64,000 bases of DNA from Armatimonadota bacterium. GTDB lineage: Bacteria > Armatimonadota > UBA5829 > DTLH01. Position 1 is the first letter of the stretch. Each line of letters opens with the position of its first letter. Shown here piece by piece: positions 1,995-48,461 of this stretch. Below the pieces are notes generated by a model. That model was not told the DNA's origin. It was given only the letters and a program-made list of their open reading frames with translations, and did not search any database. The position numbers and the translations under genes are program-made. The stretch is from contig JBDKUN010000031.1 of assembly GCA_039679675.1 (NCBI GenBank), forward strand, positions 957 to 64,956. The letters run 5' to 3'.

Positions 1995-2477
1995 CTAATC
2001 AGCTACAGGCTGGCCGGTAATTCGCTCACGGGCCATCAGTATAGCCTGCTCGCGCAGGTAATCGAGCTGGTCTTCTTCGTCTTCAAGGTTTTCCTCGAAA
2101 ATATCACAGGCTTCGTCATGTCCTATATCTTCGCACAGGTTATAGAAGAGTTCCTGAGAATCTGACAGCCTGTATTTGATGAGGATAACCGTTTTGAGCA
2201 GTTCGATAATGTCGTTTCCGCTCATGTCTATGAGCTGCTGGGCCAGCTTGAGCCCGCGCTGTATGCTCTCGTCGAAGTCTCCCCCATGGCTGATCTCATC
2301 CAGGACTCTTTCCAGCCTGTCTATCAACTGTTCGTCCTGGCCGTGAATATCCTGAAGCTGCCGCTTCATACCGGGGTCGAGACCTTCGCTGTTCAACAGC
2401 TTGTGCTCTATCACACGCATCCCCTGAGCCGTCCCAAGTGCTTCGGCAAGTTGAGTTGAAAGGTATTCTCTGTCCAT
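1995..2477 (-). CDS. Ferritin-like DUF892 (YciE/YciF-type) protein
   Basis: About 160 aa, acidic, with repeated E/D-x-x-H helices ('VIEHKLL', 'DIHGQDEQLIDRLE', 'DEISHGGD'). The track starts at a GTG (2489); an in-frame ATG at 2477 has AGGTGA 7 nt upstream and is preferred. Confidence 0.55.
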   Translation of the reverse strand: MDREYLSTQLAEALGTAQGMRVIEHKLLNSEGLDPGMKRQLQDIHGQDEQLIDRLERVLDEISHGGDFDESIQRGLKLAQQLIDMSGNDIIELLKTVILIKYRLSDSQELFYNLCEDIGHDEACDIFEENLEDEEDQLDYLREQAILMARERITGQPVAD

Positions 2478-2592: not shown

Positions 2593-5500
2593 TTACGGAG
2601 AGAGCACTTTCACCGGTATCATGATCGACCTTGGAGCTTCAGGCGGCCCCATAAATACGAGCCCTTCGCTACCGGGCGGCGCGGGTGGGAAGGACAGCCT
2701 TATAGTTTCGGGCCGCGCATGCCGGATTTCACCCGCCGGACACGTGGTTTTTATATCAGAGCCCTTTACAGTAAGGATTTTCATGCTGAAAGTCGTTGGT
2801 GCGGGCACTCTGAAGCCATGGACGGCAATACGATACTTTCCATCGCAGGGCAGGTAATAACAGATATGTTCTTTCGAGCCAATACTGGCCGATATTGCCA
2901 TGACTTCATATGTCCAATCGAATTGGCCATCGTTGTCCGCGTCGTACAGCAGATAGAGGTCGAGGTCGGCGTTTTCCGGGCCGTCTATATCGATTTCGAT
3001 CATCCCTGTGCCGGTAAGATCAATGTCTTTCTTCCACTTGGAATATTCAGGCGCATCCACAGGGTCCTGGCGGACAGGCTGGCCGAGCAGGACATCAGGA
3101 ACGGCGAAACCATACGAGAGCGAAGAGAGCCCCGGAAGTAGCATGGAGCTGGACATTCGGATTTCGGCTGATGTCTGGCCGGGAGAGAGCTCGATTGTAT
3201 CCGGCTCTATCCAGACGGTGCCTGCATTGAGCTTGACAGGCTCGGAACCTCTTATTCCGGGCGATAGCACGTTTTGGAGCTGTATCAGGTTTAGTCCCGG
3301 CTCGGATTTTCCCGCTACCCACTCTGATGTACCACCTGTCGCAGTCTCGAACGGCCACATTCCGGCTGTGCTGTTTGTCCGGCGGCTCGAACCGGAGAGT
3401 GTAAGCCCGTACGGGCCGAAAACATTGGGCATTGTAGATGAAAAGTAGTCGGTCCTGTCGGGCCGGTAGATCATAATATCCGTATCTGCCGGTGTTGTGC
3501 TCCACTGGGCATTTGCCAGGATAAATGACGACATCTTGGGCCGGTTTGCCGGGACGTCCATGAAGTAGAACCGCCAGTCGCCGGATTCCGCCCTCCATCC
3601 CCAGTCGAATGCGCCGAACATCCTGCCGTTGTCGAAGGTATCTCCGATGCCGTCCGTGCCGCTGACGAGTGAAGACTTCTTCGGAGCCATCGACGACTGA
3701 GCAGCCACAACAACGGAGACCGGGACTGTTACCGTTTCGCCGTTTTTCGCGGACATCTGAAGTGAGCCGACGTATGTACCGGCTCCGGCATCGTTCGGAA
3801 CCTGAATCTTGACCGGGACCGTGGCGGCCTGCCCCGGTTTTACCACAACCGGCCTCGATGAAACGCTCAGCCAGTTCCAGGGCACCTGTTTGTAGAACTC
3901 CAGTTCAACTTTGAACTCTGTGGAAGGGATGAAATTTGACCTCGCGTCATGATGCAGACCGAGTATAAGTCCGTCATGAATGCGTGACATGGGGCGCCTC
4001 GCCGAAACCTCGATCACGTCGCTCCATGGGTTTGCGAACATGAAAGGATTGGCCTCCGACTCCTGCATCTCGCCGGTGTTTACCGCGCCGTTTCCGTCCG
4101 AATCCTGCCAGAGAATTCCGTCACCGTTCAGGTCAGTCCAGTCGAGGAGCGATACCATCCATGAATTCGACGGCAAAAGTTCGCGTGAGGCAGGATCGGT
4201 AAGGCTGAACTGCCGGTACGGCTGGCTGACTCTGATCCTGACGAGGTCTGCATCCTCGGGCACGAGGTCCGATATATCTATAAGATAGTCCGGCTTGCTC
4301 TGCACAAGCTCGAAATACTCGCATTCGTTGTGTGTAGTGAACTCGAACTCTTTTTCGCCAGTCAAGAGGAGCCTGCGGCCGCTGGCAGCTATTTCAAGCG
4401 CACTTGAACCTGTGTTCTCGGCGGTGAACTCTTTCATCTTTGCCTCGCCGGGCTTCATCGCACGGGGAAAGGATTCAGCATCGGGTTTAGCGTCTCCCGC
4501 TGCGTACGAAGGCGGGCTTACTGTGAAACCTCCGCTCCCGGAAGCGATTTTGACAGCTCTTGCGGCGTCGGCCAGCCCCGCGCCCTGCTCGCAGACGTTA
4601 TACGAAAGGTCGCGTGCGCTTGACATCAGTATCGTCTTTGATTCCTCATAGCCGGGGAAGGTTCCATGACTTTGTTTATACGCCTCGTAAGTCAAAGCCA
4701 GCAGACCTGATGTGATCGGCGCGGACAGGCTCGTTCCTCCCCAGACGCCCCACGCGTTTTCTCCGCTGCCGCCAAGAGGCGTATCTCCTGTGGCCCATGC
4801 ACCGATGGCGGCCACATCCGGCTTCACTTGGCCGAGGCTGCTCGGCCCCCTGTCCGACCACTGCTGGATGTCTCCGAACAGGATTTGCTCTGCTGATCCT
4901 ATCGGATTGAACGCATCGGTGGAACCCTGAAGCGTGGCTGCGCCGACGGTAATTACTGAACTCGCCCCGCCGGGGCTTGAGACCGTGCCGTAGCCTGGGC
5001 CGCCGTTTCCTATCGCCGCGACGAACGTCGTTTTGGGTGCGATTGTCTCGTTCAGGCTTGTAATATACCTGGAAAAGAAGTCCCAGCCGTCGGCGTCTTC
5101 TGAGGAAAAATCGAAGCTCATATTGACGATGTCCGCGTCGTCGCTCGTTCCCGGTTTGCCGTCGTAACCGAGGACAGCGAACCTTACTGCGTCATACATG
5201 CTGGAATAAGTATCGTACGCATTGCCTATCTGGATGATCTTCGCGCCGGGGGACATGCCAAAGACCATCCCTGAACCGGACGGCTTCTGCGGGATTTCAT
5301 AAGTCTTGCCGGCCTTCCCCTTTGCAGCGATAGCGGACGCAACGAGCGTGCCGTGCTCGTCCCATTTGCCGAATCCACCGGCAAAGGCGACGAGTGCTCC
5401 GTTTGCGGGAGAAGTGAGGTGATACAGCCAGTCTGAAGCGGGAATCGGGTTTATTCCATCAGCTATGAAGTAGACCATTCCGGCGGAGTAGTCCGCAAGT

Positions 5501-6357
5501 CCGTCACCGTCCTTATCCCACCAGGATGTCTCGTCACCCTTTCTGCAGGGCTTATCATTGAGGAAATTTAAATCCTTGTTGATGTCTACGTAGACCGTGT
5601 CGTATACGCCGGGTGTCGATTCATCCGCAACGAGCACAGCAGGCTGCAGCCCCCAGGGGTTGATGATATACGGCAGCCAGTAGGACGGATGGACTCCTAT
5701 ATGATATGTGCCGCTCTTGCTGGTTCCGGGGAGCGTGTACCTTCTGCCTCTATACACCGGATTTGCATCGGTTATGGTCTTACTTGTATCGACATAGCCG
5801 CCGGTTGGCCGCCTGTTCAGCGCATAGTAGGCCATCGCATAGGGGTCGAAGACGATAGGCCAGCCGTAGTAAGGAGATGATGGGTCAGCGACCCGCGCCT
5901 GGCAGCCGTTGAGGTCGGGGTGGCAGATGTCTATCCCTTCGTCGATGACCGCCACTTTGACGCCGTTTCCAGTATAACCCGCATTCCAGGCTGCCGAAGC
6001 GCCTTGTACATCTTTTGTAAGCCAGGTGTCCGGCTGGGCGGGGTTTATGCTCTCACTCCCGATCGGGCTTCGAAAAAGCCTTTCCCAATCCATATGCGGA
6101 CCGGGGACAGGAGGAACTTTTACCGTTTTGTCAGGGAGCACCATGACGACATCCCCGCCGGACGCTATTTTCTGCAACTCCGCTGGTGTGGCTTCGACCC
6201 GGTTGAACGCAAGCCCGCCGGGCTGCGAGGAATCTTTTCTAACGACAATCGATTTTGTCCTGGCGATGGCATTTACAGGCCCATCGGCAAGCACCGGACA
6301 AAAAGCTGTTACGAAAAGTAAAGCTGCAACTGCGAGAACACGGCAGATACGAAGCAT
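2593..6357 (-). CDS. Secreted subtilisin-like serine peptidase (S8 family), large multidomain
   Basis: 1254 aa with N-terminal signal peptide 'MLRICRVLAVAALLFVTAFCPVLA'. Catalytic triad motifs are present: 'GVKVAVIDEGIDICHPDL' (Asp), 'HGTLVASAIAAKG' (His), 'GTSLSAPITSGLLAL' (Ser). Long C-terminal extension. AAGGAGA RBS. Confidence 0.75.
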   Translation of the reverse strand: MLRICRVLAVAALLFVTAFCPVLADGPVNAIARTKSIVVRKDSSQPGGLAFNRVEATPAELQKIASGGDVVMVLPDKTVKVPPVPGPHMDWERLFRSPIGSESINPAQPDTWLTKDVQGASAAWNAGYTGNGVKVAVIDEGIDICHPDLNGCQARVADPSSPYYGWPIVFDPYAMAYYALNRRPTGGYVDTSKTITDANPVYRGRRYTLPGTSKSGTYHIGVHPSYWLPYIINPWGLQPAVLVADESTPGVYDTVYVDINKDLNFLNDKPCRKGDETSWWDKDGDGLADYSAGMVYFIADGINPIPASDWLYHLTSPANGALVAFAGGFGKWDEHGTLVASAIAAKGKAGKTYEIPQKPSGSGMVFGMSPGAKIIQIGNAYDTYSSMYDAVRFAVLGYDGKPGTSDDADIVNMSFDFSSEDADGWDFFSRYITSLNETIAPKTTFVAAIGNGGPGYGTVSSPGGASSVITVGAATLQGSTDAFNPIGSAEQILFGDIQQWSDRGPSSLGQVKPDVAAIGAWATGDTPLGGSGENAWGVWGGTSLSAPITSGLLALTYEAYKQSHGTFPGYEESKTILMSSARDLSYNVCEQGAGLADAARAVKIASGSGGFTVSPPSYAAGDAKPDAESFPRAMKPGEAKMKEFTAENTGSSALEIAASGRRLLLTGEKEFEFTTHNECEYFELVQSKPDYLIDISDLVPEDADLVRIRVSQPYRQFSLTDPASRELLPSNSWMVSLLDWTDLNGDGILWQDSDGNGAVNTGEMQESEANPFMFANPWSDVIEVSARRPMSRIHDGLILGLHHDARSNFIPSTEFKVELEFYKQVPWNWLSVSSRPVVVKPGQAATVPVKIQVPNDAGAGTYVGSLQMSAKNGETVTVPVSVVVAAQSSMAPKKSSLVSGTDGIGDTFDNGRMFGAFDWGWRAESGDWRFYFMDVPANRPKMSSFILANAQWSTTPADTDIMIYRPDRTDYFSSTMPNVFGPYGLTLSGSSRRTNSTAGMWPFETATGGTSEWVAGKSEPGLNLIQLQNVLSPGIRGSEPVKLNAGTVWIEPDTIELSPGQTSAEIRMSSSMLLPGLSSLSYGFAVPDVLLGQPVRQDPVDAPEYSKWKKDIDLTGTGMIEIDIDGPENADLDLYLLYDADNDGQFDWTYEVMAISASIGSKEHICYYLPCDGKYRIAVHGFRVPAPTTFSMKILTVKGSDIKTTCPAGEIRHARPETIRLSFPPAPPGSEGLVFMGPPEAPRSIMIPVKVLSP

Positions 6358-7358: not shown

Positions 7359-8438
7359 TTATGACAGCGAAGGATCGGCAATTCTCGAATGCCGCCGTAC
7401 GTTCTGAGCAGCTCCGGCCTTCCCTGCGGACGGCATTTGTTTTATCTCGAATACTACCGGCGTTCCTTCGATTGCATCGTCGAACTCAATATCAGACTCC
7501 AAGTCCGTCAGGTGGAAGAAATAATTATTTCCATCCGCGGTCTCTATGAACCCGTAACCCTTGTCGGGAAGCCTCTTTGCGACTACGCCGCTGATCGGAT
7601 GCCTCAGGGTATGTCCGTTTATGTGAATTCCTGGCTCAGGATTCTTTATCTCGGAATCAAGAAAATTGCACTGGGCTTCTCTCTTTTGTTTAAGGAACTC
7701 CTGGCGGCATTCGTCGCAAAAGAACTTCTGGCCTCTTCTTGGATGGAAATAGGTCCAGACTTCTTTGGGCCCTTTATGATAAGGAGACTCACATGGGATC
7801 TTGTGCCGCTCGTATTTCAGCTCCAGCTCGGTCAGAAGATCATCTATCCAGATGATATTGAAGTCCTTTACGCGCGCTTCGTCTCTGGGATCGGCGTATT
7901 CGGGCGAGCAACTGCCTTTGACGCTTGCAATGGCAACACGTTTACCCAGCCTGCGCACGTGCTGAAGCACAGGCTTGAAGTCCTGATCGCCTATGACGGC
8001 TATCGCTATGTCGTAGGCATACGGAATGGCTGCAAAATAGAGCATAGATGTGGCAAGCGATATATCTACGCATTTTTCTTTCGGATCGAATGAATCGTTG
8101 GGGTCCCTGTCGGACTTTCTGATCCGGCGGCGGAAATAGTTGACTGGAAATATCTCCACTTCATAGTGATACTCTTCCTTGAGCATAGAGAAGAAGTCCC
8201 GGCGGCGCTGAACACTGTCATCATCTCTCAGATCATAGTTTTGCGCGTAACTTCCGAACAGATACGTGCGCACTATGTCTATAGAGGTTGCGCCGAGCTG
8301 ACTCTTGACCTTGTCTGCAAGCACGACCGGGAGCTTACGGAAATCGACATGGTAGTCCTCCTGCCCGTAAGCTTCGCACAGCTTCGGTGTATTCGAGTAC
8401 AGCCAGGTTCCGTCTATGAAGATCATTACTTTCGTCAA
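7359..8438 (-). CDS. NYN (LabA-like) domain protein fused to a zinc-ribbon and C-terminal cold-shock (CSD/OB) domain
   Basis: N-terminus 'IFIDGTWLY...' plus acidic patches typical of NYN/PIN-like nucleases. A central 'C..H...C..C' segment (CESPYH...CDEC) is present. C-terminus 'GVVAKRLPDKGYGFIETADGNNYFFHLTDL' is a canonical cold-shock domain. Start is either TTG 8438 or ATG 8426. Confidence 0.6.
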   Translation of the reverse strand: MTKVMIFIDGTWLYSNTPKLCEAYGQEDYHVDFRKLPVVLADKVKSQLGATSIDIVRTYLFGSYAQNYDLRDDDSVQRRRDFFSMLKEEYHYEVEIFPVNYFRRRIRKSDRDPNDSFDPKEKCVDISLATSMLYFAAIPYAYDIAIAVIGDQDFKPVLQHVRRLGKRVAIASVKGSCSPEYADPRDEARVKDFNIIWIDDLLTELELKYERHKIPCESPYHKGPKEVWTYFHPRRGQKFFCDECRQEFLKQKREAQCNFLDSEIKNPEPGIHINGHTLRHPISGVVAKRLPDKGYGFIETADGNNYFFHLTDLESDIEFDDAIEGTPVVFEIKQMPSAGKAGAAQNVRRHSRIADPSLS

Positions 8439-9514: not shown

Positions 9515-11650
9515 TCATTCACCCATCTCTTTCTTTAGTGCATCTTCCAAAGCAGCTTCTACACCTATCCAGGATGTTTCCTCTGTCGGCGTTTTCGGAT
9601 CGAACGGCGTAAGTGCGGCTGCCTGTGTTATGGGAAAAGTGATCTGTGTTCCGTTGAGCGAGAACGTGGCAGATGCTGCTCCAAAATCAACCAGCCTTGC
9701 GTCTTTCAGTGTATCACCTGTTCTTAGTGTTCGCTTTACTGGCCTATCCCCTATTTGAGAATACATAACGGCCTTAGGCTCATTATCATCATCATGCGTT
9801 CTCTGGCCAATATAGTTCCATTCCGAAAGAGAATTCATTACCACAAGCACCTGCGGCTGTGTAGGCGCTGGTTTATCATCAGCTTTAGGGGCAGATTGTG
9901 CGGTTTTACTATAAGCCCTCGGTACCGGCAATCTAATGTCAATCGGCCATGTTGTTCCATCAACAAAGCCGAACGTAAATGTTACGGGATGATTCCAGCT
10001 GTTTTGAGGGCCTCGGTCATTGACACTGAAATAAGAAGGTTTAGGGAGCAAATCTACAGCGGTTACAACACTTCTTAGCGCCTCATAGAAGAGGTCTCTC
10101 TGCTTATTTTCCAATACTGTGAATGAGATACCTCCATTACATGCTTTTTCACGTCGCCTGGGGCTAAGTGAAGCATATAATCGTATGAACTCAGGCCTTG
10201 CTCCGGCGTACGCTATACCTGAATTCTCTAGATCATCCGGCACATTTCCAGGTAAAGCATCGAGTTGTTTCTGGTTCAATAATGAGACTACCTCTGCCAA
10301 ACCATCAAGATCGAATGTGCCATTGGTTTTCGCTGCAACAGCGCGGAGTTTATTTATAGTAGACAGGGGTATGTTTTCAGCAAGTCTATCCGCAAAATGC
10401 CTGGAAACGAGGATTATCTGCTCGTTTTGATAAGCCCAGACATAATCAAGTATGCTATCTGCTGCCAAGTCGAGGGCATACCCAAGCTGTGTATTACCAG
10501 TGACCTTTACCTCCCATACTACTTGAGGCTCAAAAGCAAAGAGTGAATATCCCTTTTGTTTGCAGATATCCTGGATTAAGTCCGTACTGTGATAACGCTT
10601 TTCAGCCGGATGACTAAGGAGTTGTTTGTCTATTTCGATATCAGTCGCATTCCTCAGGCCAAATCTGGGAGGAGTTTCTGTCAAGCGCGTTTCTTTTTCT
10701 TTTTCTATAGCTTCATCGTATAATCTGTAGAAATCAGCTCTCTCCGATTCCAGTGAATCCTCGGCAGCTTCCATAGACATGCCCTTTGCGTTCAGCAGCA
10801 ATGCACGATAATCAGGATAATAAGTAAACTTCGGCTCTACGAAACCCGTTGTTTCGATTCCCGAAAATGGATCGTTAGATTCGATGCATAAAGTTAGCCC
10901 ATACATATCATCATAATTGGTGATCCGCAAAGTTCCGGTGTTAACAAACATACTCTCCAGTTCCTTCACACTCGGAGCATTGTCACCATCCTGTTGTGCA
11001 TGCTTTTTAGCTGACTCTTCTATCCCCCTTCGAGCAGTATTATTAAGAAGCTTTTTCTGCATGTCTGCAGGTAGATCTCGGATATTCACGTTTAAGCCTT
11101 CAGGACTGAAAGACTGGTCAATCTGTTCATCATTGAAGCCGGTAAGTAATTCAATTTCTGTATGATCTGACGAGCAGGTAAGACCCAACACAAGTCGCGG
11201 GTCTGTTTCGGCAAGTGATTGCAACTCTTCTTTAGAAAGGGCCAACGCAGCTCTATATTCGGCAAGACGTTTCTTAACGTACTGTGCGATTCTTTTTTGA
11301 TCTTCTTCATCTGCGGCGTCAGCGAGGCTGCTCCACTTGCTTCTTTCGATGTAGTCCGGTCCGAGCACCTTATATGTGGTCCCATCTGCCGGTTTGATGC
11401 TTATCCACTGGTAGCCCGGCAGGAGGTCAAGCCCCTGTTCTACCTTATCCGTGGATGAGGGGTCCACGTACACCGAAAGTTTGTCTTCGGCTACCGAGTC
11501 ACTTGCCCAAAGCTCGATTTTGGATGCAGCCCTGGCCTTTTCAAGAAGCGTGGTGATGCTGATGCTGTTACTTTTGAGCGGTTCAGCGCTTGCCGGTATG
11601 GATGAAGCAAGTGATAAAACAGATAAGCAGAAAAGCATTACGGTGCGCAT
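9515..11650 (-). CDS. Uncharacterised secreted protein, paralog 1 of tandem triplet
   Basis: 711 aa with signal peptide 'MRTVMLFCLSVLSLASSIPASA/EP'. N- and C-terminal thirds are shared with two downstream paralogs. AAGGAGACGACAA-ATG RBS. No recognisable catalytic motif. Confidence 0.8.
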   Translation of the reverse strand: MRTVMLFCLSVLSLASSIPASAEPLKSNSISITTLLEKARAASKIELWASDSVAEDKLSVYVDPSSTDKVEQGLDLLPGYQWISIKPADGTTYKVLGPDYIERSKWSSLADAADEEDQKRIAQYVKKRLAEYRAALALSKEELQSLAETDPRLVLGLTCSSDHTEIELLTGFNDEQIDQSFSPEGLNVNIRDLPADMQKKLLNNTARRGIEESAKKHAQQDGDNAPSVKELESMFVNTGTLRITNYDDMYGLTLCIESNDPFSGIETTGFVEPKFTYYPDYRALLLNAKGMSMEAAEDSLESERADFYRLYDEAIEKEKETRLTETPPRFGLRNATDIEIDKQLLSHPAEKRYHSTDLIQDICKQKGYSLFAFEPQVVWEVKVTGNTQLGYALDLAADSILDYVWAYQNEQIILVSRHFADRLAENIPLSTINKLRAVAAKTNGTFDLDGLAEVVSLLNQKQLDALPGNVPDDLENSGIAYAGARPEFIRLYASLSPRRREKACNGGISFTVLENKQRDLFYEALRSVVTAVDLLPKPSYFSVNDRGPQNSWNHPVTFTFGFVDGTTWPIDIRLPVPRAYSKTAQSAPKADDKPAPTQPQVLVVMNSLSEWNYIGQRTHDDDNEPKAVMYSQIGDRPVKRTLRTGDTLKDARLVDFGAASATFSLNGTQITFPITQAAALTPFDPKTPTEETSWIGVEAALEDALKKEMGE

Positions 11651-11704
11651 TTGTCGTCTCCTTTATTTATAACTCAATAGACTCCGATAATGGGAACCAC
11701 GGTA

Positions 11705-13843
11705 TCAGTTACTCAACTCTTTCTCTAGAGCTTCTTCCCAAATTTTGTCTACACCCATCCAAGCCGTATAGATTGATGGAGCTTTCGGGTCGAATGGCGC
11801 GAGCGAAGTAGCCTGAGTTATGGGAAAAGTGATCTGTGCCCCGTCGAGAGTGAATATAGCGGATTTTTCCCCGATCTCAACCAGTTTCGCGCCTTCCAGG
11901 GTTTCTCCTACCTTTAATATGCGTTTTACGAGTTTATCTCCTATTTGAGAATACATGATTGCCTTAGTTACGTTATCATCATCATGCTCTCTCCTGCCGG
12001 AATAGTTCCATTCTGCAAGCGATTTCATCACAGTAAGCACCTGCGGCTGTGTAGACGCTGGATTATCAACAGCTTTAGGGGCAGATTGAGCGGTTTTATT
12101 ATTGACCCCCGGTACCGGTAATTGAAGATCGAACGGTAATGTTGTCCCATCGACAAAGCCGAATGTAAATGTTATGAAGTGGTAATTGCCATTCTGGGAG
12201 CCTCGGTCATCAATACTGAAATATGAAGGCTCAGGGAGCAAGTCTACTGCAGTTGCAACACTTCCCAATGCCTCATAGAACAGATCCTTTTGCTTACTTC
12301 CCAATACTGTGAATGAAACACCTCCATTACAGGCACTTTTACGCCGATGAGGACTGAGAGAAGCATATAGCTTTATAAGCGCGCTATTGAGTTTCGCATA
12401 ATATATACCTGTAGCTACTATACCTTTCCCTGCTAAACTTGTAATTGCTAAATCTGTCGGTATATTTTCTGGTAAGGCATTTAGCTGTCTCCAATTCAGC
12501 AATGAGACCACCTCTGCCAAACCATCGAGATCGAATATACCGCCGGTTTGAGCAGCAATAGCTCGGAGCTTATTTATAGTAGGCAGTGGTATGTTTTCAG
12601 CAAGTTTATAAGTGAAATGTCTGGGAATGAAGATTATCTGCCCGTCCTGATAAGCCCAGACATAATCACACAGGTTATCTGCTACCTGGTCCAGCGCAAA
12701 TCCGAGTTGCGTGTTATCAGCAATGGTTTCCCCTCGTGGACCGGGCTCAAAAGCAATGAATGAATACTCTTTTTGTTTGCAGATATCCTGTATGATTTTT
12801 ATGCACATGTCCTGAGGCTTCAGACCGCTTACCTTGACATCAGGAGCGTTCCTCAAGCCGAACCTGGGAGGGTTTTCCGTTAGACGTGTTTCTTTTTCTT
12901 TTTCCTTAATATCCATTAGTATATCGAAGAGATAATCTTCTTTTTCCTGTAAATCTTTGATAGCCTCTGTAGAGATACTCTTTGCACGTAATAGAGATAA
13001 GCGAGATGGATGATAATTAGAATACTTGGAGCCCATGACATAAAACAGACAATAATCAGACAATGGATCATTGGATTTGATGGTTACAGAAAATCCGCCC
13101 ATATCATAACCGGTAAGCTGTAAAGTCCCGGTGTTAATAAGCACTTCCTCCAGTTCTTTCGCGCTCGGAGCACTTGTGCCATCCCGTTTTTTATGCTTAT
13201 TGGCTGACCTGTATATCATCCCTCGAATAATATTGTCCAGGAGATTTTCTTGCATAGCTGCAGGTAGATCACGGACATTCATTCTCAAACCCTGCGGGCT
13301 GAGGACCTGGTTCATCTGCTCATTATTCAAGCTAACAATCAGTTCTACTGCTACGCGAAAGCAGGGTGTGGTAAGGTCATAGACGATTTTTGGGTCTTTC
13401 GCTGCAAGAGACTGAAGTCCGTCTTTAGAGAGAGCCAGTGCTGCTCTATACTCGGCGAGTTGTTTCGCAGCGTATTGCCTAACTCTTTTTTGATCTTCTT
13501 CATCTGCGGCGTCAGCAAGGTTGCGCCACTTGCTTCTTTCGATGTAGTCCGGTCCGAGCACCTTATATGCGGTCCCATCTGCCGGTTTGATGCTTATCCA
13601 CTGGTATCCAGGCAATAGATCAAGCCCCTGTTCCACCTTACCCGCGTATGAAGGGTCCACATACACCGAGAGTTTGTCTTCGGCTACAGAGTCACTTGCC
13701 CAAAGCTCGATTTTGGATGCAGCCCTGGCCTTTTCAAGAAGATTTATGATGCTGATGCTGTTACTTTTGAGCGGTTCGGCGCTTGCCGGTATGGATGAAG
13801 CAAGTGATAAAACAGATAAGCAGAAAAGCATTACGGTGCGCAT
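11705..13843 (-). CDS. Uncharacterised secreted protein, paralog 2 of tandem triplet
   Basis: 712 aa. Its 5' approximately 400 nt are nearly identical to paralog 1. Its 3' approximately 300 nt are nearly identical to paralog 3. Confidence 0.8.
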   Translation of the reverse strand: MRTVMLFCLSVLSLASSIPASAEPLKSNSISIINLLEKARAASKIELWASDSVAEDKLSVYVDPSYAGKVEQGLDLLPGYQWISIKPADGTAYKVLGPDYIERSKWRNLADAADEEDQKRVRQYAAKQLAEYRAALALSKDGLQSLAAKDPKIVYDLTTPCFRVAVELIVSLNNEQMNQVLSPQGLRMNVRDLPAAMQENLLDNIIRGMIYRSANKHKKRDGTSAPSAKELEEVLINTGTLQLTGYDMGGFSVTIKSNDPLSDYCLFYVMGSKYSNYHPSRLSLLRAKSISTEAIKDLQEKEDYLFDILMDIKEKEKETRLTENPPRFGLRNAPDVKVSGLKPQDMCIKIIQDICKQKEYSFIAFEPGPRGETIADNTQLGFALDQVADNLCDYVWAYQDGQIIFIPRHFTYKLAENIPLPTINKLRAIAAQTGGIFDLDGLAEVVSLLNWRQLNALPENIPTDLAITSLAGKGIVATGIYYAKLNSALIKLYASLSPHRRKSACNGGVSFTVLGSKQKDLFYEALGSVATAVDLLPEPSYFSIDDRGSQNGNYHFITFTFGFVDGTTLPFDLQLPVPGVNNKTAQSAPKAVDNPASTQPQVLTVMKSLAEWNYSGRREHDDDNVTKAIMYSQIGDKLVKRILKVGETLEGAKLVEIGEKSAIFTLDGAQITFPITQATSLAPFDPKAPSIYTAWMGVDKIWEEALEKELSN

Positions 13844-13897
13844 TTGTCGTCTCCTTTATTTATAACTCAATAGACTCCGATAATAGGAACCACGGCA

Positions 13898-16054
13898 TCA
13901 TTCACTCATCTCTTTCCTTACAGCTTCTGCCCAGGCTTTGTCTACACCCATCCAGTATGTATAAAATGATGGTGATTTCGGATCGAATGGCGCGAGCGAA
14001 GTAGCCTGAGTTATGGGAAAAGTGATCTGTGCCCCGTCGAGAGTGAATATAGCGGATTTTTCTCCGATTTCAACCAGTTTCGCGCCTTCCAGGGTTTCTC
14101 CTACCTGTAATATGCGTTTTACGAGTTTATCCCCTATTTGGGAATACATGATCGCTTTAAGCTCATTGTCATCATCATGCTCTCGCCTGCCGGAATAGTT
14201 CCATTCTGCAAGCGATTTCATCACAGTAAGCACCTGCGGCTGTGTAGGCTCTGCCTTATCATCAGCCTTAGGAGCAGATTGAGCGGTTTTACTATTATCT
14301 TTGGGTAACGGCAATTGAAGATCGAACGGCAAGGCTGTCTCGTCGGCAAAGCCGAATGTAAATGTTATGGGGTGATACCTGCCATTTGGGGAATCACGGT
14401 CATCGACACTGAAGTATGAGGGTTCAGGAAGCAAGTCTACTGCATTTACAACTCTTCCCAATGCCTCATAGAACAGGGCTATTTGTTTATTTCCAAATAC
14501 TGTGTATGAGACACCTCCATTACATGCTTTTTCACGCCGGCGTGGACTGAGTGAAGCATATAACCTTACGGCGGGTTCCTTAATATAGTCTATACCTGTA
14601 GCTCTTAGGTCATCCGGTGCATTCTCCGGTAAAGCATCGATCTGTCTCTGATTAAGTAGTGGAACCGCCTCCGCCAGGCCGTCAAGATCGAATGTGCCGT
14701 TGGTTTTCGCTGCAATAGCTCGGAGTTTATTTATAGTAGACAGCGGTATACCTGCAGCGAGTCTATCTTCAAAATGCCTGGGAGCGAGAATTAGCTGATC
14801 ATCCTGGTAAGCCCAGACATAATCACCTAAATAATCACGAAGAATACCCAGACTATCCATCGCCAGGTCCAGAGCATAACCGAACTGCATATCATCGGTT
14901 GCCTTTAATCCACGGTTCCGATAAGGTTCAAAGGCAAAGAGTGAACAGCCTTTCTGGCTGCAGACGCTTTGGACGAATTCCACGCCTCGATAATAGGGAT
15001 ATCCTTCCACTACAGGTTTACCAAGAAGCTGTCTGTCTATCCTAAAATCAGGGGCATTCCTCGAGCCGAATCTGGGAGGGGCTTCTGCAAAACGGGTCTC
15101 TTTTTCCTTTGCCATAGCATCAGTCCACAAGTTAAAGAAATAATCTTCTTCTGCGTTCCGTAAATTCCAGGCATCTTCCTTGGACATGGTCTTTTCTCTT
15201 AGATTCAATACATAAATCCAATAATTATCTGTATATGTGGGGCCTATAATAGATGATTGATACCCTCCAAACAAGGGAACATCCGATCTGATGTCCACAG
15301 TAAACCCGCCCGAACCATAACCGGAGAATTGTAGAGTTCCGGTGTTAACAAACACTTTTAGTAACTCTTTTGCGCTTGGAGCATTAGCACCATATCTTTT
15401 TGCCAGTCTTTTAGCTGGCTCATCCACCATTCCTCGAATCCTACTATCGAGAAACTTTTCCTGTTTATCTGCAGGCAAATCACGGACGTTTACTTTCAGA
15501 CCCTGCGGGCTAAGAATCTGGTTCAACTGCTCATTGTTGAAGTTGGCAAGTAATTCTGCTTCTACACGAGAGGACGGGGTGGTAAGGTTACACACAAGCT
15601 GCGGGTCTGTCTCGGCGAGTGATTGCAGTTCATCGTTGGAAAGAGCCATCGCCGCTCTATATTCGGAGAGGCGTTTTTCCAAAAATTCTCTGACTTTTCT
15701 TCTTTCTTCTTCATCTGCGGCGTCAGCGAGGCTGCGCCACTTGCTTCTTTCGATGTAGTCCGGTCCGAGCACCTTATATACAGTCCCATCTGCCGGTTTG
15801 ATGCTTATCCACTGGTATCCAGGCAGGAGATCGAGCCCCTGTTCCACCTTATCTGAGGATGACTGGTCTACATACACCGAAAGTCTATCTTCGGCTACCG
15901 AGTCACTGGCCCAAAGTTCAACTTTGGATGCAGCCCTGGCCTTTTCAAGAAGATTTATGATGCTGATGCTATCACTTTTGAGCGGTTCAGCGCTTGCCGG
16001 TATGGATGAAGCAAGTGATAAAACAGACAAGCAGAAAAGCATTACGATACGCAT
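13898..16054 (-). CDS. Uncharacterised secreted protein, paralog 3 of tandem triplet
   Basis: 718 aa with the same signal peptide and conserved blocks ('KEKETR..PPRFG.RNAPD', 'DYVWAYQ', 'TINKLRAIAAKTNGTFDLDGLAE', 'ACNGG.S.TV'). Confidence 0.8.
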   Translation of the reverse strand: MRIVMLFCLSVLSLASSIPASAEPLKSDSISIINLLEKARAASKVELWASDSVAEDRLSVYVDQSSSDKVEQGLDLLPGYQWISIKPADGTVYKVLGPDYIERSKWRSLADAADEEERRKVREFLEKRLSEYRAAMALSNDELQSLAETDPQLVCNLTTPSSRVEAELLANFNNEQLNQILSPQGLKVNVRDLPADKQEKFLDSRIRGMVDEPAKRLAKRYGANAPSAKELLKVFVNTGTLQFSGYGSGGFTVDIRSDVPLFGGYQSSIIGPTYTDNYWIYVLNLREKTMSKEDAWNLRNAEEDYFFNLWTDAMAKEKETRFAEAPPRFGSRNAPDFRIDRQLLGKPVVEGYPYYRGVEFVQSVCSQKGCSLFAFEPYRNRGLKATDDMQFGYALDLAMDSLGILRDYLGDYVWAYQDDQLILAPRHFEDRLAAGIPLSTINKLRAIAAKTNGTFDLDGLAEAVPLLNQRQIDALPENAPDDLRATGIDYIKEPAVRLYASLSPRRREKACNGGVSYTVFGNKQIALFYEALGRVVNAVDLLPEPSYFSVDDRDSPNGRYHPITFTFGFADETALPFDLQLPLPKDNSKTAQSAPKADDKAEPTQPQVLTVMKSLAEWNYSGRREHDDDNELKAIMYSQIGDKLVKRILQVGETLEGAKLVEIGEKSAIFTLDGAQITFPITQATSLAPFDPKSPSFYTYWMGVDKAWAEAVRKEMSE

Positions 16055-16188
16055 TTGTCATCCCCCATTGCCAGCCCAATCTAGCTCAACCAACCAGGCT
16101 GCTAAATTACTTAAAAGGACTTTCCGGCGTTCCAGAAAGTTCCTTATTTTAACTCATGATTGGGATATAAGATAACAAATGGTATGCT

Positions 16189-16905
16189 TTAGCTTCCTAT
16201 TCTCGCAATAACTACCGTCACATTGTCCGAATTTGGGTAAAGGGCAGCAGCATCGGTAAGCAATGTGCAGGTCTGGTCATCATAGGAGGCCAGTACTTCG
16301 AGGATTACTTCTTCCGGGATCACATCCGTCAGGCCGTCTGTACATAAGAGAAGCAGGTCTCCGGATTGTGCTTCGATACTGGAAGGCTCGACCGGCAGCA
16401 GCGGCTGCCAGCCCACCGCGTGGTTGACCAGCGTCACACCGTTCGGCTGCTTCAGCCATTCATCTTTGGTGAGAGGTATAAGTTCATTCTGCCGGTATAT
16501 GTAAGCCCTGCTGTCCCCAACAGAGACGATGTGGACCTCTCTATCCGTCAGAGCGACAGCGACGCAGGTAGTCCCCATCCCCTTAAGAGACTCATCCTCT
16601 GTCTGGGCACGAAAAACTGCTGCATTTGCCTTCTGGAGTGCGAACCTGAGCAGGTGAGGCACATCCGACACAGATTTATTCGCAACAATGCATCCGGCGG
16701 AAAAGACTTCCGCGAGGGTCTTCAAGGCCAGCTCGCTTGCCTGTGCTCCCGTTGCCCGCCCGCCGATGCCGTCCGCTACCGCCAGAAGCCCGATCGTTCC
16801 GCATGGCGCCGACTCACCTGCGAGCGCAAGATACCCGTCTTCATTTACCTCTTTCGAACCCTTATGACTTGCACAACTGACCACAATTCGAGTTTCTACA
16901 GCCAC
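16189..16905 (-). CDS. PP2C-family Ser/Thr protein phosphatase
   Basis: 'KEVNEDGY', 'LAVADGIGGRATG', 'VSVGDSRAYIY' and 'LLLCTDGLTDV' are PP2C metal-binding motifs. GTG start with AGGAG RBS. Confidence 0.7.
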   Translation of the reverse strand: MAVETRIVVSCASHKGSKEVNEDGYLALAGESAPCGTIGLLAVADGIGGRATGAQASELALKTLAEVFSAGCIVANKSVSDVPHLLRFALQKANAAVFRAQTEDESLKGMGTTCVAVALTDREVHIVSVGDSRAYIYRQNELIPLTKDEWLKQPNGVTLVNHAVGWQPLLPVEPSSIEAQSGDLLLLCTDGLTDVIPEEVILEVLASYDDQTCTLLTDAAALYPNSDNVTVVIARIGS

Positions 16906-16971: not shown

Positions 16972-17037
16972 ATCACAGTTCGCGGAGCCGCAAACCGCGG
17001 ACATTTCGTAATTCCGTCAAGGAAGGCGGTATTCCCC

Positions 17038-17400
17038 ATGTTTGAAATAACTGTTGAAGAGAAATTCGATGCCGCACACTGCCTTCGCGGCTATCCTGGA
17101 AACTGTGAACGTCTGCACGGGCACACCTACAAAGTGCAGGTCCTCCTTCGCACGCCGAACCTCGATAAAATCGGGATGGCTGTCGATTTCAGATCTGTCC
17201 GGGCGGCTTTAAGAGAAATAATCGAGTCGCTCGACCATACATTCTTGAACGAACTGCCGGATTTTACCGAGACCAACCCAACAGCCGAGAACCTTGCCTG
17301 CTACATATACGTAAAAATGAGCAAAAAATTCGCCAGCCAGGTAAAGAAAGTTACTGTCTGGGAGACTGATTCAGCCGCTGCCAGCTACTGGGAGGAATAA
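17038..17400 (+). CDS. queD: 6-carboxy-5,6,7,8-tetrahydropterin synthase (6-pyruvoyl-tetrahydropterin synthase family)
   Basis: 120 aa with 'CLRGYPGNCERLHGHTYKV' (Cx3HGH Zn/catalytic motif) and a 'DHTFLNE' block. AGGAAGG RBS. The track's longer ORF from 16366 is antisense to the PP2C gene and was trimmed. Confidence 0.75.
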   Translation: MFEITVEEKFDAAHCLRGYPGNCERLHGHTYKVQVLLRTPNLDKIGMAVDFRSVRAALREIIESLDHTFLNELPDFTETNPTAENLACYIYVKMSKKFASQVKKVTVWETDSAAASYWEE

Positions 17401-18263
17401 TGAGCAAATTTCTCGATCTGATCGAGCATAAGCCGGTCATCTGCGACGGTGCGGTAGGCACGGAGATCCACCGCCGAAGCGGCAGGATGGACCAATGCCT
17501 CGACAGCATCAACCTGACCAATCCCGATCTCATCCGCCAAATCCACCACGACTATGCAGCCGCAGGAGCGCAGATCCTCGAAACGAACACATTCGGAGCC
17601 AACCGCATCAGGCTTTCGGCTCATGGGCTTGCCGGTTCTGTAAGAGAGATCAACATGGCAGGCGCGAGAATAGCAAGAGAAGAAGCAAAAGGCGGTATCG
17701 TTGTGGCGGGCTCTATGGGCTCGACGGGAAAGATTCTGGAACCTTACGGCGCGCTTTTGGTAGATGAAGCCCGTGAAGTATTCGATGAGCAGGCCGAAGC
17801 CCTGAAGGACGGCGGAGTGGACGTCATCTTCGTGGAGACGATGGCCGATTTGAACGAGGCCACCGCCGCCGTGAGTGCAGCAAAAGCGACCGGGCTTCCG
17901 ATAGTCGCGCAGATGTCCTTTTCTCAAGAAGGCCGGACTATGATGGGAGTCGACCCTGCGACTGCCGTTCGGACATTCGAGGGACTTGGTGCGGATGTTG
18001 TCGGCGCTAACTGCGGAACAGGGTTCCATGATATGTTAGGTGTGGTACGTGAAATGGTTGCCGTGGCTGCAAGACCTGTCATCGCCCAGCCGAACGCGGG
18101 ATTCCCTCAGTTTGTGGACGGGCGGCTGGTGTATGTCAGTGGACCGGCGTACATGGCGGATTATGCCCGGCAGTTTGCAGATTTGGGTGTAGCGATAATA
18201 GGCGGATGCTGCGGGACTACTCCAGAGCATATCCGCGCTATCGCTCAGGCGCTGGGGAGGTAA
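17400..18263 (+). CDS. Homocysteine S-methyltransferase domain protein (MetH N-terminal/MmuM/YitJ-N like)
   Basis: 'PVICDGAVGTE', 'LETNTFGAN', 'VGANCGTG' and 'IGGCCGTTPEHI' are Hcy-binding/Zn motifs. The start overlaps the queD stop (ATGA) and is preceded by GGGAGG. Confidence 0.7.
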   Translation: MSKFLDLIEHKPVICDGAVGTEIHRRSGRMDQCLDSINLTNPDLIRQIHHDYAAAGAQILETNTFGANRIRLSAHGLAGSVREINMAGARIAREEAKGGIVVAGSMGSTGKILEPYGALLVDEAREVFDEQAEALKDGGVDVIFVETMADLNEATAAVSAAKATGLPIVAQMSFSQEGRTMMGVDPATAVRTFEGLGADVVGANCGTGFHDMLGVVREMVAVAARPVIAQPNAGFPQFVDGRLVYVSGPAYMADYARQFADLGVAIIGGCCGTTPEHIRAIAQALGR

Positions 18264-18267
18264 CTCT

Positions 18268-19137
18268 ATGGCGCTTAGAGACAAACTAGGGAAAGATTTC
18301 GTAACTACAGTGGAGATTGACCCGCCGCGCGGCGTCGCCATCGAGAAAACAATCGGGAAAGCGTCGGTTTTGCGAGGTTTCGATGCCATAAACATCGCCG
18401 ACAGCCCTATGGCAAGGGTGCGTATGAGCCCTGTTGCGCTCGCCCACCTCTTGCGCGAATGCATGGGCATCGACACGATCCTGCATATGACCTGCCGGGA
18501 CCGAAACCTGCTCAGTTTGCAGTCGGACCTTCTTGGGGCTTATGCGCTTGGGGTGCATAACGTGCTTGCGCTGACGGGCGACCCGGTAAGTATCGGGGAT
18601 TATCCGCAGGCGACTGGTGTTTTTGATGTGACGAGCGAAGGGCTGGTGCGGGTCATCAGCCGTTTGAACAGCGGGATGGACCTTGCGGGAAATTCGCTCT
18701 CGGAGCCACCGAAGTTCTGTATAGGAGTGGCGGTCAATCCTGCTTCGAGCGATCTTCCGAAGGAGATAGGCAGGCTGGAAAAGAAGATGGAGGCCGGAGC
18801 TCATTTCGCGCTCACGCAGCCGGTGTATGACCTGGCAGTCCTTGAAAAGTTTGCAAAGTTGGTCGATGGTAGTAAAATACCGGTATTGGTCGGCGTGCTT
18901 CCGTTGAAAAGCTCGAAACATGCCGAATATTTGCATAATGAAGTGCCGGGAATTGATGTCCCGGAGCATATCAGAATGCGTATAAGAAATTCCGACGAGG
19001 AACATGCGCGGGCGACAGGCGTCGATATTGCCGTGGAGTTCCTTCGGAATGCAAAGGATTTGGCAGCCGGTGCATACTTTATGCCTCCTTTTGGGGACTA
19101 TGAGATGGCTGCGCAGATCGTGGCAGAAGCGTTATAG
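18268..19137 (+). CDS. metF: 5,10-methylenetetrahydrofolate reductase
   Basis: 289 aa with 'DFVTTVEIDPPRG', 'INIADSPMARVRMS' and 'TCRDRN' TIM-barrel MTHFR motifs. GGGGAGG RBS. Confidence 0.7.
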   Translation: MALRDKLGKDFVTTVEIDPPRGVAIEKTIGKASVLRGFDAINIADSPMARVRMSPVALAHLLRECMGIDTILHMTCRDRNLLSLQSDLLGAYALGVHNVLALTGDPVSIGDYPQATGVFDVTSEGLVRVISRLNSGMDLAGNSLSEPPKFCIGVAVNPASSDLPKEIGRLEKKMEAGAHFALTQPVYDLAVLEKFAKLVDGSKIPVLVGVLPLKSSKHAEYLHNEVPGIDVPEHIRMRIRNSDEEHARATGVDIAVEFLRNAKDLAAGAYFMPPFGDYEMAAQIVAEAL

Positions 19138-19159
19138 TGCTTAGTTAAGGAATTACATT

Positions 19160-19909
19160 ATGTCTTCACCGACAGCGTTTATATCAGAGATATTTACCTC
19201 GATACAGGGCGAGGGGATTTATACGGGGCGGCCGCAGGTGTTCGTCCGGTTCTGTGGCTGTAACCTGAACTGCGACTACTGCGACACTCCCGCGTCCAGA
19301 GACAGGCAAAAACCGTTCTGTTCGGTCGAAAAGACTCCGGGCAGAGGCGATTTTGCGTATATGCAGAACCCTCTCGTGGTGGATGATGTTGTCGAGGCTA
19401 TCGAATCACTCGCAGTTTACGGAGATGTTTCACTGACTGGCGGCGAGCCGCTCCTGCAGTGTGATTTTCTCGTCAAACTCTTGCCTTTGCTCAGGAGTAA
19501 GGGATACAGAGTCCACCTTGAGACGAACGGGACGAAGCCGGATGAAGTCGCGCGGCTTGCAGGGCAGGTAGACGTGATAGCGATGGACTTCAAGCTCCAG
19601 TCTGCAGCCTGCGTGGGAGATTTATTCGATTTGCATGCGAAATTTCTGAAGGCCGCGAAACGCGCGAAGGTCTTCGTAAAGGCTGTAGTGACGTCTGAGA
19701 CGACGGATGCCGAAATTCGACGGTGCGCCGAGACGATAGCCGGAGCGAAGCCCGTTCCGCTGATTCTGCAGCCGGTTACTCCAGTCTCGGACGGAGGAAT
19801 GAAGCCGCCAGCGCTCCCGCAGCTTCTACGGATGCATGCAATAGCCTCCGAAGAGCTCGACGACGTTCGAATCCTTCCTCAGTTGCACAAGACGCTTGGG
19901 ATAAGGTAG
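19160..19909 (+). CDS. queE: 7-carboxy-7-deazaguanine synthase (radical SAM)
   Basis: 'EIFTSIQGEGIYTGRPQVFVRFCGCNLNCDYCDTP' is the QueE N-terminal signature with the Cx3Cx2C-like cluster motif. Confidence 0.75.
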   Translation: MSSPTAFISEIFTSIQGEGIYTGRPQVFVRFCGCNLNCDYCDTPASRDRQKPFCSVEKTPGRGDFAYMQNPLVVDDVVEAIESLAVYGDVSLTGGEPLLQCDFLVKLLPLLRSKGYRVHLETNGTKPDEVARLAGQVDVIAMDFKLQSAACVGDLFDLHAKFLKAAKRAKVFVKAVVTSETTDAEIRRCAETIAGAKPVPLILQPVTPVSDGGMKPPALPQLLRMHAIASEELDDVRILPQLHKTLGIR

Positions 19910-41100: not shown

Positions 41101-41652
41101 ATCTTCCTCTGTTTTGACCGCTGGAGAAAGGCTGACAAACTTGTTCGTCTCTCCGCGCATCCGCACAACTACATTGAAGCTCATCATGGTGCCGGGAGTC
41201 GGGGCTTTGACACCGAGTTCGTGCCATGGCAGGGCCAGCTCGACCGTGTAGCCTATGTCCAGGTCGTTCGAGTTGCTTATGGAGCCATCTGCGACGGAGG
41301 CATATTTGAATGAAAGTATCTTCTTGATCCGCCAGCCGCCGTTGCCGTCCGATTCAGTGAAAGCAGCCCCGCCTGCGGAGCTGACGGCCATGTGATACGT
41401 AGACTTTGACCTGCCGGGTGCATGATTGTTGTCCGTCTCAAGGAAGATCTCGACTGAATCGTCTTCCCATGGGTTGGAAAACGGTGAGATGTTTGTCCCG
41501 GTTATGTCAGGATCGTCCACGGTAAAAGCGGCGTAAAAATAGTTCTCGTCCCAGGTAGTATAGCCGGTCATCTTTCCCTGAGCCAACACTATGGCGGGAA
41601 CCAACCCAAATAGAATTGTTAAAAGTAGAGTAAGCTTGCGCAGTTTAGTCAC
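38182..41652 (-). CDS. Large secreted multidomain protein with N-terminal CBM9-like region, central glycoside-hydrolase-like core and at least 3 Ig-like 'N-D-G...W' repeats
   Basis: 1156 aa with signal peptide 'MTKLRKLTLLLTILFGLVPAIVLAQG'. Repeated 'TVQNDGTKPWKAAEGYALGYRW', 'VVVRNDGASTWKAGWTLGCRLF' and 'VVVKNDGTDTWTKETYSIGCHWY' modules. The enzymatic assignment is tentative. Confidence 0.6.
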   Translation of the reverse strand: MTKLRKLTLLLTILFGLVPAIVLAQGKMTGYTTWDENYFYAAFTVDDPDITGTNISPFSNPWEDDSVEIFLETDNNHAPGRSKSTYHMAVSSAGGAAFTESDGNGGWRIKKILSFKYASVADGSISNSNDLDIGYTVELALPWHELGVKAPTPGTMMSFNVVVRMRGETNKFVSLSPAVKTEEDIHDASKWANIVFTGAGFAVATTSLDKIVSAKYIARMPLIDGQVRQKEWNNNTSFELPLPIEKQKLPQHQLQKMVLTHYFYWYQDNPRKAAPCKFVRAAGGVLELSDSPANGAGPWFSYDRVQLHKTEFSDMKRAGVDIVMPVYRGDAASRAAYAAKGLDSIAEALRELKSEKKPYPLVGMFFDTSSMALAYKDSSQPKGTEDVKRTFYGMIHDFFMRVPEEFRAQVQMSDERKDRPCCIVYLYSCKPISGFDASFISYANEQFVKDFGAHILWMGAQDFKDKQTSFDAYCNYGAGLGSGYDDTARIRVSTIGPGYDDCAIAVREAHINARNAGDLYKTEWTEALNKRPNWVVLDGWNNLSEGTGICGTRQYGFTYVDTTAIQTLKFRGAREYDAKYMHNNLPAVITTGAFYQTDITVQNDGTKPWKAAEGYALGYRWYQNGALVAESGIRRPVQSDVFPGHSANITIGIAAVTKDGQNLPEGDYDVRFEMVRLADDKWFSALGDDGFVVPVRVGKNSDVQARFLSIDGPVMMKTGAGYPFKVVVRNDGASTWKAGWTLGCRLFKVSNGAREEVGIAPVNAGLEKDVPPGETAEVTVNVNLKDTAGQPLPVWKQTDPWSYLLKFDIFDGSKSITEESTASNERIIDVFENDYGAKVIACDVSDGIEAGKTITCKVVVKNDGTDTWTKETYSIGCHWYYLDGVEAVWDGEKTPVNGQIVPGMPAIINAKLTAPPYDGRYILVWDFFINGKWASTSEISRGNDILTTEVTVKNGKLQFADLSKLFDVAGASPDRNRESGGFDGSGHSFPAEMIPPDTSMGKPNDIYPCCYGWKSDPAGLESPRHISFVYGPKAAGDKNFIACAGQSVAVPKAKYTKIHILGAAIEPDQEADFGLGYQSSVEPAKVVMSSWTGEPMHGEEIGLVTLHRHSKAGDEPGVKCYLFHYTIQVDPAKPLASIVLPKNDKVRITAITLEKP

Positions 41653-48459: not shown

Positions 48460-48461
48460 CG

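Follow-up and report, generated by a model that had tools for sequence, protein, structure and literature searches.

We analysed a 64,000-nucleotide (nt) stretch of contig JBDKUN010000031.1 from a metagenome-assembled genome (MAG) of an Armatimonadota bacterium, hereafter the window, in which three consecutive minus-strand genes encode related proteins with N-terminal signal peptides. The genes, here called G1, G2, and G3, are annotated as 'hypothetical proteins' (ABFD64_06030, 06035, and 06040). The array begins with G3, ends with G1, and comprises the following features:

9515-11650, minus strand: G1, last gene of the array, an open reading frame (ORF) of 711 amino acids (aa)
11651-11704, minus strand: G2-G1 spacer of 54 bp
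11705-13843, minus strand: G2, middle gene, an ORF of 712 aa
13844-13897, minus strand: G3-G2 spacer of 54 bp, part of the repeated unit, which carries an AAAGGAG ribosome-binding site
13898-16054, minus strand: G3, first gene of the array, an ORF of 718 aa that matches P0002

These ORFs agree with the original prediction, made from the letters of the window alone, of three consecutive minus-strand genes of about 710 aa. Its statement that the 54-bp spacers are almost identical also holds, as 52 of 54 positions match and both spacers end in AAAGGAGACGACAA followed by ATG. The last ~22 nt of the G3-G2 spacer are kept in the sister MAG described below as well. The signal peptides, which had been called identical in all three proteins, are so in G1 and G2 (MRTVMLFCLSVLSLASSIPASA, then EPLK), but that of G3 (MRIVML...) differs by one residue. 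In each protein the signal peptide is the sole hydrophobic stretch and ends in ASA/E, which fits a cleavable Sec signal peptide. G1-G3 are therefore probably exported to the periplasm or envelope.

The close family consists of only six proteins in two MAGs: G1, G2, and G3; P0005, on another contig of the same MAG and unlinked to the array; and P0004 and P0006 of the sister MAG. This brings the number of family copies in the MAG studied here to four. A search of genome contigs recovered the sister MAG only, a word-indexed search with a mixed alignment recovered the close family only, and a first metagenome scan gave no match. The sister locus (L001) is syntenic (PP2C, a 718-aa gene, a second copy, HAD, and PEMT) and has two copies in place of three, in the same order. 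P0004 (hereafter Ba) is the ortholog of G3, with 91% nucleotide identity overall and 98-100% in central windows. G2 is without an ortholog at the sister locus, and at its 3' end G1 clusters with the sister-MAG copy Bb (28 sites support the Bb+G1 split in the 3' region). The annotation of P0006 (ABFD46_07680; L001 12212-14407) gives 672 aa, although the full ORF is 731 aa and includes the family signal peptide. We considered whether P0006 is a pseudogene and rejected this, as the copy is intact and its annotated start is merely too late. It also carries an acidic insertion of ~32 residues that is not present in other copies.

Overall nucleotide identity between the array copies is 71-74%, and it is patchy. 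In 100-nt windows, G1 and G2 have identities of 0.97, 0.92, 0.92, and 0.84 over the first 400 nt, followed by 0.58. This bears out the claim that these two copies are near-identical over about 400 nt and then diverge, with the correction that G3 is also highly similar to the others over the 5' ~360 nt (0.79-0.94), as are both sister-MAG copies. G2 and G3 were correctly said to be near-identical over their last 300 nt (0.92, 0.88, and 0.98), where pairs involving G1 reach 0.71-0.86. The tracts concerned lie as follows:

15695-16054, minus strand: 5' homogenised tract of G3, ~360 nt, encoding the signal peptide and the first STN-like module
13484-13843, minus strand: equivalent 5' tract of G2
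11291-11650, minus strand: equivalent 5' tract of G1
13898-14150, minus strand, approximate boundaries: G3/G2 3' conversion tract, encoding the C-terminal beta module
~11705-11955, minus strand, approximate boundaries: equivalent of the 3' conversion tract in G2

Identity of the 5' tract among copies is 0.85-0.97. The 3' tract reaches 0.96 between G3 and G2 in alignment window 2041-2160. In a GENECONV-like permutation test, the longest run in this tract was 35 matching polymorphic sites (p=0.0002), and the result persisted when only third codon positions were used (p=0.0006). G2 is converted with G3 at its 3' end and with G1 at its 5' end.

We then compared synonymous divergence (dS) and parsimony-informative sites along a codon alignment of five genes, namely G1, G2, G3, Ba, and Bb. 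In the centre, G3 and Ba have nucleotide identities of 0.88-1.00 and a dS of 0.14, whereas paralog pairs have identities of 0.39-0.8 and a dS of 0.96-1.2. Informative sites in the centre overwhelmingly follow orthology, with 88 supporting the Ba+G3 split and 4 supporting the by-genome split Ba+Bb. Over the 5' 360 nt, dS rises to 0.38 for G3/Ba and drops to 0.19-0.27 among paralogs within this genome, and the informative sites are divided among Ba+Bb (7), G1+G2 (7), and Ba+G3 (3; Fisher p=6e-6). At the 3' end, dS is 0.61 for G3/Ba and 0.24 for G3-G2, and past alignment position 2041 there are 11 sites for G2+G3 and 0 for Ba+G3 (Fisher p=4e-9). The centres thus identify G3 and Ba as orthologs and place the divergence of the paralogs far in the past, whereas the ends show the opposite pattern.

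Protein sequences behave in the same way. The centres form five old lineages (G1, G2, G3/Ba, P0005, and Bb) with 47-62% identity, and the first 120 residues are 79-93% identical in every copy, including P0005. Sliding-window identity was not uniform, and we rejected a simple recent duplication given a central dS of ~1 and the five old lineages. In view of the dS values, the split counts, and the permutation test, the mosaic is real, and gene conversion subsequent to the separation of the two lineages accounts for it best. Conversion between copies repeatedly overwrote the 5' ~360 nt of the genes and, in G2 and G3, also the 3' ~250 nt, as the original prediction had proposed when it suggested recurrent recombination or gene conversion between units.

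Several features of the array were noted alongside its mosaic structure. Sigma-70-like hexamers occur at 14073-14046 on the minus strand, in the 3' end of G3, and at 11880-11853 on the minus strand, in the 3' end of G2. Both sites consist of TTGAAA or TTGAGA, a 16-nt spacer, and TATATT, and are located ~150-200 nt before the ATG of the following gene. G1, which is not followed by a family gene, had no equivalent site reported at its 3' end. These hexamers are consensus matches only; the 3' conversion tract may have preserved them as internal promoters. The GC content of the array (window 10001-16000) is 0.446-0.466, compared to 0.50-0.57 in its flanks, which could mean either that the array is of foreign origin or that the family has a biased composition. 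An Rfam search of the locus gave no match.

G1-G3 had no match in Pfam, NCBIfam, PHROGs, or PADLOC, and a sequence search of the PDB with the close-family profile also gave none. An exhaustive profile search of 1.84 billion representatives returned 43 relatives at E ≤ 1e-3. Among these, P0007, from another Armatimonadetes MAG, P0008, and P0009 are full length, with ~26% identity, and searching with P0007 added P0049 as a further full-length relative. About 35 relatives of 580-700 aa match two stretches of the query. Two relatives, P0012 and P0034, have an N-terminal Peptidase_M56 (BlaR1) domain. Profile-profile alignment with hhalign matched residues 25-577 to the distant group with a probability of 100% (E=5e-47), and a profile built from the distant group alone recovered G1-G3 at 1e-46 to 1e-52. 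In metagenome loci, the gene immediately upstream of M56-fused members encodes a BlaI-type repressor (Penicillinase_R E=6e-24 and 2.5e-29; Peptidase_M56 E=3.6e-28 for the fusion), and one metagenome contig has two consecutive pairs of a BlaI repressor and an M56-ectodomain sensor (L009 5529-12795). These alignments indicate homology between the body of G1-G3 (~25-577) and the outer sensor domain of BlaR1-type signalling proteins.

The M56-fused type accounts for 7 or 8 of 28 loci, and the remainder are stand-alone copies. Stand-alone tandem pairs occur at six of these loci (L015, L017, L021, L023, L024, and L028), which makes tandem multiplicity a recurring trait of the family. The flanks of two of these tandem homologs (L015 and L028) contain unrelated housekeeping genes and no conserved partner. 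G1-G3 themselves have no Peptidase_M56 match in Pfam. Foldseek also returned class-D beta-lactamase (OXA) structures, which we discarded as noise (probability <0.1).

To describe the fold, we used two AlphaFold2 models. The first, from six sequences, was poor, with a predicted local distance difference test score (pLDDT) of 52.8. The second, mec5997db60f6, from eight sequences, had a mean pLDDT of 64 and a predicted template modelling score of 0.51, and its confident part spans residues ~110-578, with poor modelling of 1-100 and 579-712. Neither model had a Foldseek match in the PDB at E ≤ 1e-3, which leaves the body as a whole without a solved counterpart. DSSP assigned a b-a-b-b-a-b-b unit twice, at 341-407 (pLDDT 56-82) and at ~29-98 (pLDDT <50). 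Profiles of these two modules, here termed M and N, match each other (hhalign P=3.3e-6), and a secondary hhalign match presents the whole body as a duplication of the module plus a helical 'SLSxEQ' segment.

Several searches place these modules near the STN and secretin N0 domains. The N0 domain of PilQ (4ar0) was the top PDB sequence match of a 39-sequence profile (E=0.0059, spanning the whole domain at chain residues 32-105), and smaller profiles matched it at E=0.39-0.98. It was also the first or second Foldseek match in the two models (probability 0.98-0.99, E=0.09-0.2). Other Foldseek matches were N0 domains of InvG, GspD, EscC, BfpB, and VirB7, and a FecR-like anti-sigma factor. In Pfam, the module consensus sequences matched STN at E=0.0022 for M (18.2 bits) and E=0.042 for N (14.1 bits), and FecR_C at E=0.053, and individual members matched STN at E=0.0056 and FecR_C at E=0.0068. 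We consider an STN/secretin-N0 fold likely for the modules at ~28-98 and ~341-407; formal membership of the STN family is unproven. STN modules consist of two beta-alpha-beta motifs and serve as periplasmic docking units in TonB-dependent transducers and FecR/PupR regulators (PMC7186176).

With moderate confidence, we interpret G1-G3 as three old paralogs of an uncharacterised Armatimonadota family of Sec-exported, non-enzymatic envelope proteins of a binding/docking or sensor type, whose ends have been converted. Each protein would be exported to the periplasm or envelope by a signal peptide cleaved at ASA/E. It would then consist of two units, each an STN/N0-like module of two beta-alpha-beta motifs plus a helical 'SLSxEQ' segment, followed by a beta-sheet region, a Pro/Ala-rich linker, and a small C-terminal beta module. 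G1-G3 would most likely act as docking or sensor proteins that bind a partner or ligand by means of their STN-like modules, a role presumably played by the homologous ectodomain of BlaR1-type sensors too. The paralogs differ in stable, selected central regions, and conversion keeps the N-terminal STN-like module alike in all copies and the C-terminal module alike in G2 and G3. The binding/docking or sensor role is proposed by analogy to STN modules.

The original prediction instead held that the central ~300 aa diversify and that the proteins could be surface or secretion-associated variable components. On such a reading, positive selection would act on the centre and the conserved ends would provide recombination handles. 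This is compatible with the contrast between conserved ends and a divergent centre, the four copies in this MAG, the recurrence of tandem copies in the wider family, and the demonstrated conversion tracts. However, the ratio of nonsynonymous to synonymous divergence (dN/dS) in the centre is 0.27-0.34 for all pairs, including 0.31 for the ortholog pair G3/Ba, whose centres are 92% identical at the protein level. Such values (ω ~0.3 throughout) imply purifying selection on old paralogs, and the split counts from the five genes revealed no conversion tracts shuffling the centre. The centres are old and stable lineages, and the claim of diversification is not supported; we give this explanation little credence. 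Similarly improbable is an unrecognised family of secreted enzymes, such as hydrolases acting on envelope or extracellular polymers. The large size of these secreted proteins, the motifs shared by the close family (PPRFG at 325-329, C355, D385/D389, and DYVWAYQ), and the possibility that a body without structural match has a novel fold would favour an enzyme. Yet the close-family motifs are not kept in the wider family. In a comparison of 39 relatives, L496 is the one invariant residue and Q518 comes close to invariance, a pattern that speaks against a conserved active site. The prediction that no catalytic motif is recognisable was borne out in the database searches above, in which no catalytic motif or known domain was found (no match in Pfam, NCBIfam, or the PDB), and the confidently modelled body has no fold match in the PDB at E ≤ 1e-3. 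The recognisable modules are instead those of protein-protein docking, and homologs serve as ectodomains of sensor proteases.

A further explanation takes up the suggestion that the C-terminus resembles PilP or the HR domain of GspC. G1-G3 would then be secretin-associated components like PilP, GspC, or GspB, in which a C-terminal HR domain of ~65 residues docks on the secretin N0 domain of a type II secretion system (T2SS) or type IV pilus (T4P). Pattern-level resemblance to HR domains stands, and it is accompanied by sub-threshold matches. The Pfam family T2SSB (GspB HR domain) matched 2 of 9 members at E=0.057-0.094, short of the 28.4-bit cut-off, and the C-terminal region matched PulC-HR (6hcg_e, E=0.42) and GspC-HR (3oss_C, E=0.89) in Foldseek. 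The model has five strands at 629-674 and a possible sixth at 612-616, comparable to the six-stranded beta sandwich of the HR domain, which binds N0 (PMC3169554). HR families share only 10-17% identity and likewise bind N0 (PMC9239104), so weak sequence signals are to be expected, and the HR idea is neither confirmed nor excluded by them. Against it, every match is sub-threshold and the structural ones come from a region modelled at pLDDT <50. The consensus of the C-terminal module had no T2SS match in Pfam, and a PDB profile search returned no GspC or PilP at E ≤ 10. Alignment by hhalign to single E. coli GspB and GspC sequences gave no match, although this comparison was powerless, as the N0-like module likewise failed against GspD N0. 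G1-G3 have a cleavable signal peptide and neither a transmembrane anchor, as in GspC and GspB, nor a lipobox, as in PilP. The window and four related loci yielded no Gsp or T4P homolog; phmmer searches with E. coli GspC, D, E, F, G, L, M, and O had no match at E ≤ 0.01 in the window, L001, L002, L005, or L006, although divergent components could escape such searches. The C-terminal module (~600-690) is kept in an Armatimonadota-type subgroup (P0007, P0008, P0009, P0013, and P0049) and is absent from the distant group, which makes up most of the wider family. Overall, we regard a secretin-associated role as unlikely, if somewhat less so than variable surface components or an enzyme. Since N0/STN and HR module types bind each other in T2SS and T4P machines, a head-to-tail assembly of paralogs is conceivable. 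In such a mixed scaffold, an N0/STN-like N-terminal end and an HR-like C-terminal end would be complementary, variable centres would confer specificities, and conversion would keep the copies compatible; alternatively, the proteins might be soluble co-receptors for BlaR1-type or anti-sigma signalling encoded elsewhere in the genome. We view either arrangement as a long shot.

Returning to the interpretation of G1-G3 as converted paralogs of a docking or sensor-type family, several points weigh against it. Low synonymous divergence at the 5' end could stem in part from selection on the mRNA or secretion signal and not from conversion alone. The sequences derive from MAGs, and assembly chimerism between near-identical repeat ends may have occurred, although the independent sister assembly shows the same organisation. 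The N-terminal and C-terminal modules were modelled at pLDDT <50, and the best Pfam match to STN (PF07660), at 18.2 bits, is below the gathering threshold of 28.4 bits. Neither the 64-kb window nor the sister locus contains a BlaI or M56 gene, such that the link to BlaR1-type signalling is by ectodomain homology only. Finally, no experiment ties the stand-alone proteins to a partner, nor does any conserved gene neighbourhood at the loci examined.

The array is flanked upstream of G3 by the features below and downstream by a gene for a HAD hydrolase:

16119-16140, minus strand: terminator-like hairpin between the PP2C gene and G3, a consensus match only
16189-16905, minus strand: PP2C-family phosphatase gene upstream of G3 (Pfam PP2C_2 E=3.9e-17)

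Proximity to a PP2C phosphatase had been correctly recognised from the sequence. This adjacency is kept only in the sister MAG and not at the distant relatives P0007 and P0049, and the hairpin lies between the two genes. In the sister MAG, genes for PTPS (QueD-like), homocysteine S-methyltransferase, MTHFR, and a radical-SAM protein are arranged divergently next to the PP2C gene. The window has ORFs of 287, 289, and 249 aa at ~17000-19909 on the plus strand, whose lengths and order are as in the sister MAG when compared by these two properties. In the region L002 647-5431, P0007 is preceded, after a 2-nt gap, by a 165-aa ORF without a Pfam match, and convergent genes downstream of it encode an ECF sigma factor, an anti-sigma factor of the zf-HC2 type, and a 270-aa protein without a Pfam match.

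Elsewhere in the window, minus-strand genes encode a 1254-aa S8 subtilase with a PPC domain that is probably secreted (2593-6357), an NYN ribonuclease-like domain fused to a C-terminal cold-shock domain (7359-8438), and a probably secreted 1156-aa protein with CBM9 and weak GH99/DUF5010 matches (38182-41652). At 46687-50081 on the minus strand, an [FeFe]-hydrogenase large subunit with a small-subunit domain adjoins a NuoF-like flavoprotein, an arrangement suggestive of an NADH-linked or bifurcating hydrogenase module.

The family was previously unannotated: Pfam and NCBIfam contain no model for it, and all of its members carry the label 'hypothetical'. Through it, stand-alone secreted proteins of Armatimonadota are connected with the sensor ectodomain of non-canonical BlaR1/BlaI pairs in environmental bacteria. 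Our results suggest that a BlaR1/BlaI-type sensor ectodomain is built from docking modules of the STN/N0 type, which offers a starting hypothesis for the envelope contacts of the abundant non-beta-lactam BlaR1-like sensors. The family had not been described before, and the connection made here to non-canonical BlaR1/BlaI ectodomains and to STN modules is new and computational. The locus also illustrates cleanly how gene conversion in a MAG can be restricted to domains. No long-standing open question is touched, and the function of G1-G3 is one that we infer.

Gene conversion in tandem paralogs is ordinary. The array resembles other cases of concerted evolution by partial gene conversion, in which the ends of an array are homogenised within a genome and the centres keep their orthology. 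Nothing here is mechanistically unusual, and the tracts of this array coincide with the two terminal modules. Compared to the HR domains of GspC, GspB/OutB, and PilP, the C-terminal module is similar in size, in its all-beta prediction, and in residue pattern. HR domains bind N0, and N0-like modules sit in the same protein here; in contrast to HR domains, the module of the window lacks a significant match, a membrane anchor, and a T2SS or T4P context.

The putative STN-like modules share with STN domains (PF07660, SM00965; among them the signalling domains of FecA and PupB and the STN subdomains of FecR and PupR) and secretin N0 domains (such as that of PilQ) the same two beta-alpha-beta motifs in ~75 residues. 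Known STN/N0 modules are periplasmic and act in docking. They are N-terminal in an outer-membrane channel or C-terminal in an anti-sigma factor, whereas those of the window are embedded twice in a soluble protein of 700 aa. A further counterpart is the uncharacterised ectodomain of the M56/BlaI-paired sensors (P0012, P0034, and the second L009 pair). Canonical BlaR1 has a class-D beta-lactamase-like sensor, to which this ectodomain is unrelated (no Pfam match). Residues 25-577 of the window proteins align with this ectodomain end to end, and it has the same duplicated unit of an STN-like module and helical segment. Its group also includes stand-alone secreted forms, some of them in tandem copies, like the proteins of the window. 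Unlike the M56 sensors, G1-G3 have no M56 peptidase, no transmembrane part, and no BlaI neighbour, and their additional linker and C-terminal beta module occur in the Armatimonadota-type subgroup only.

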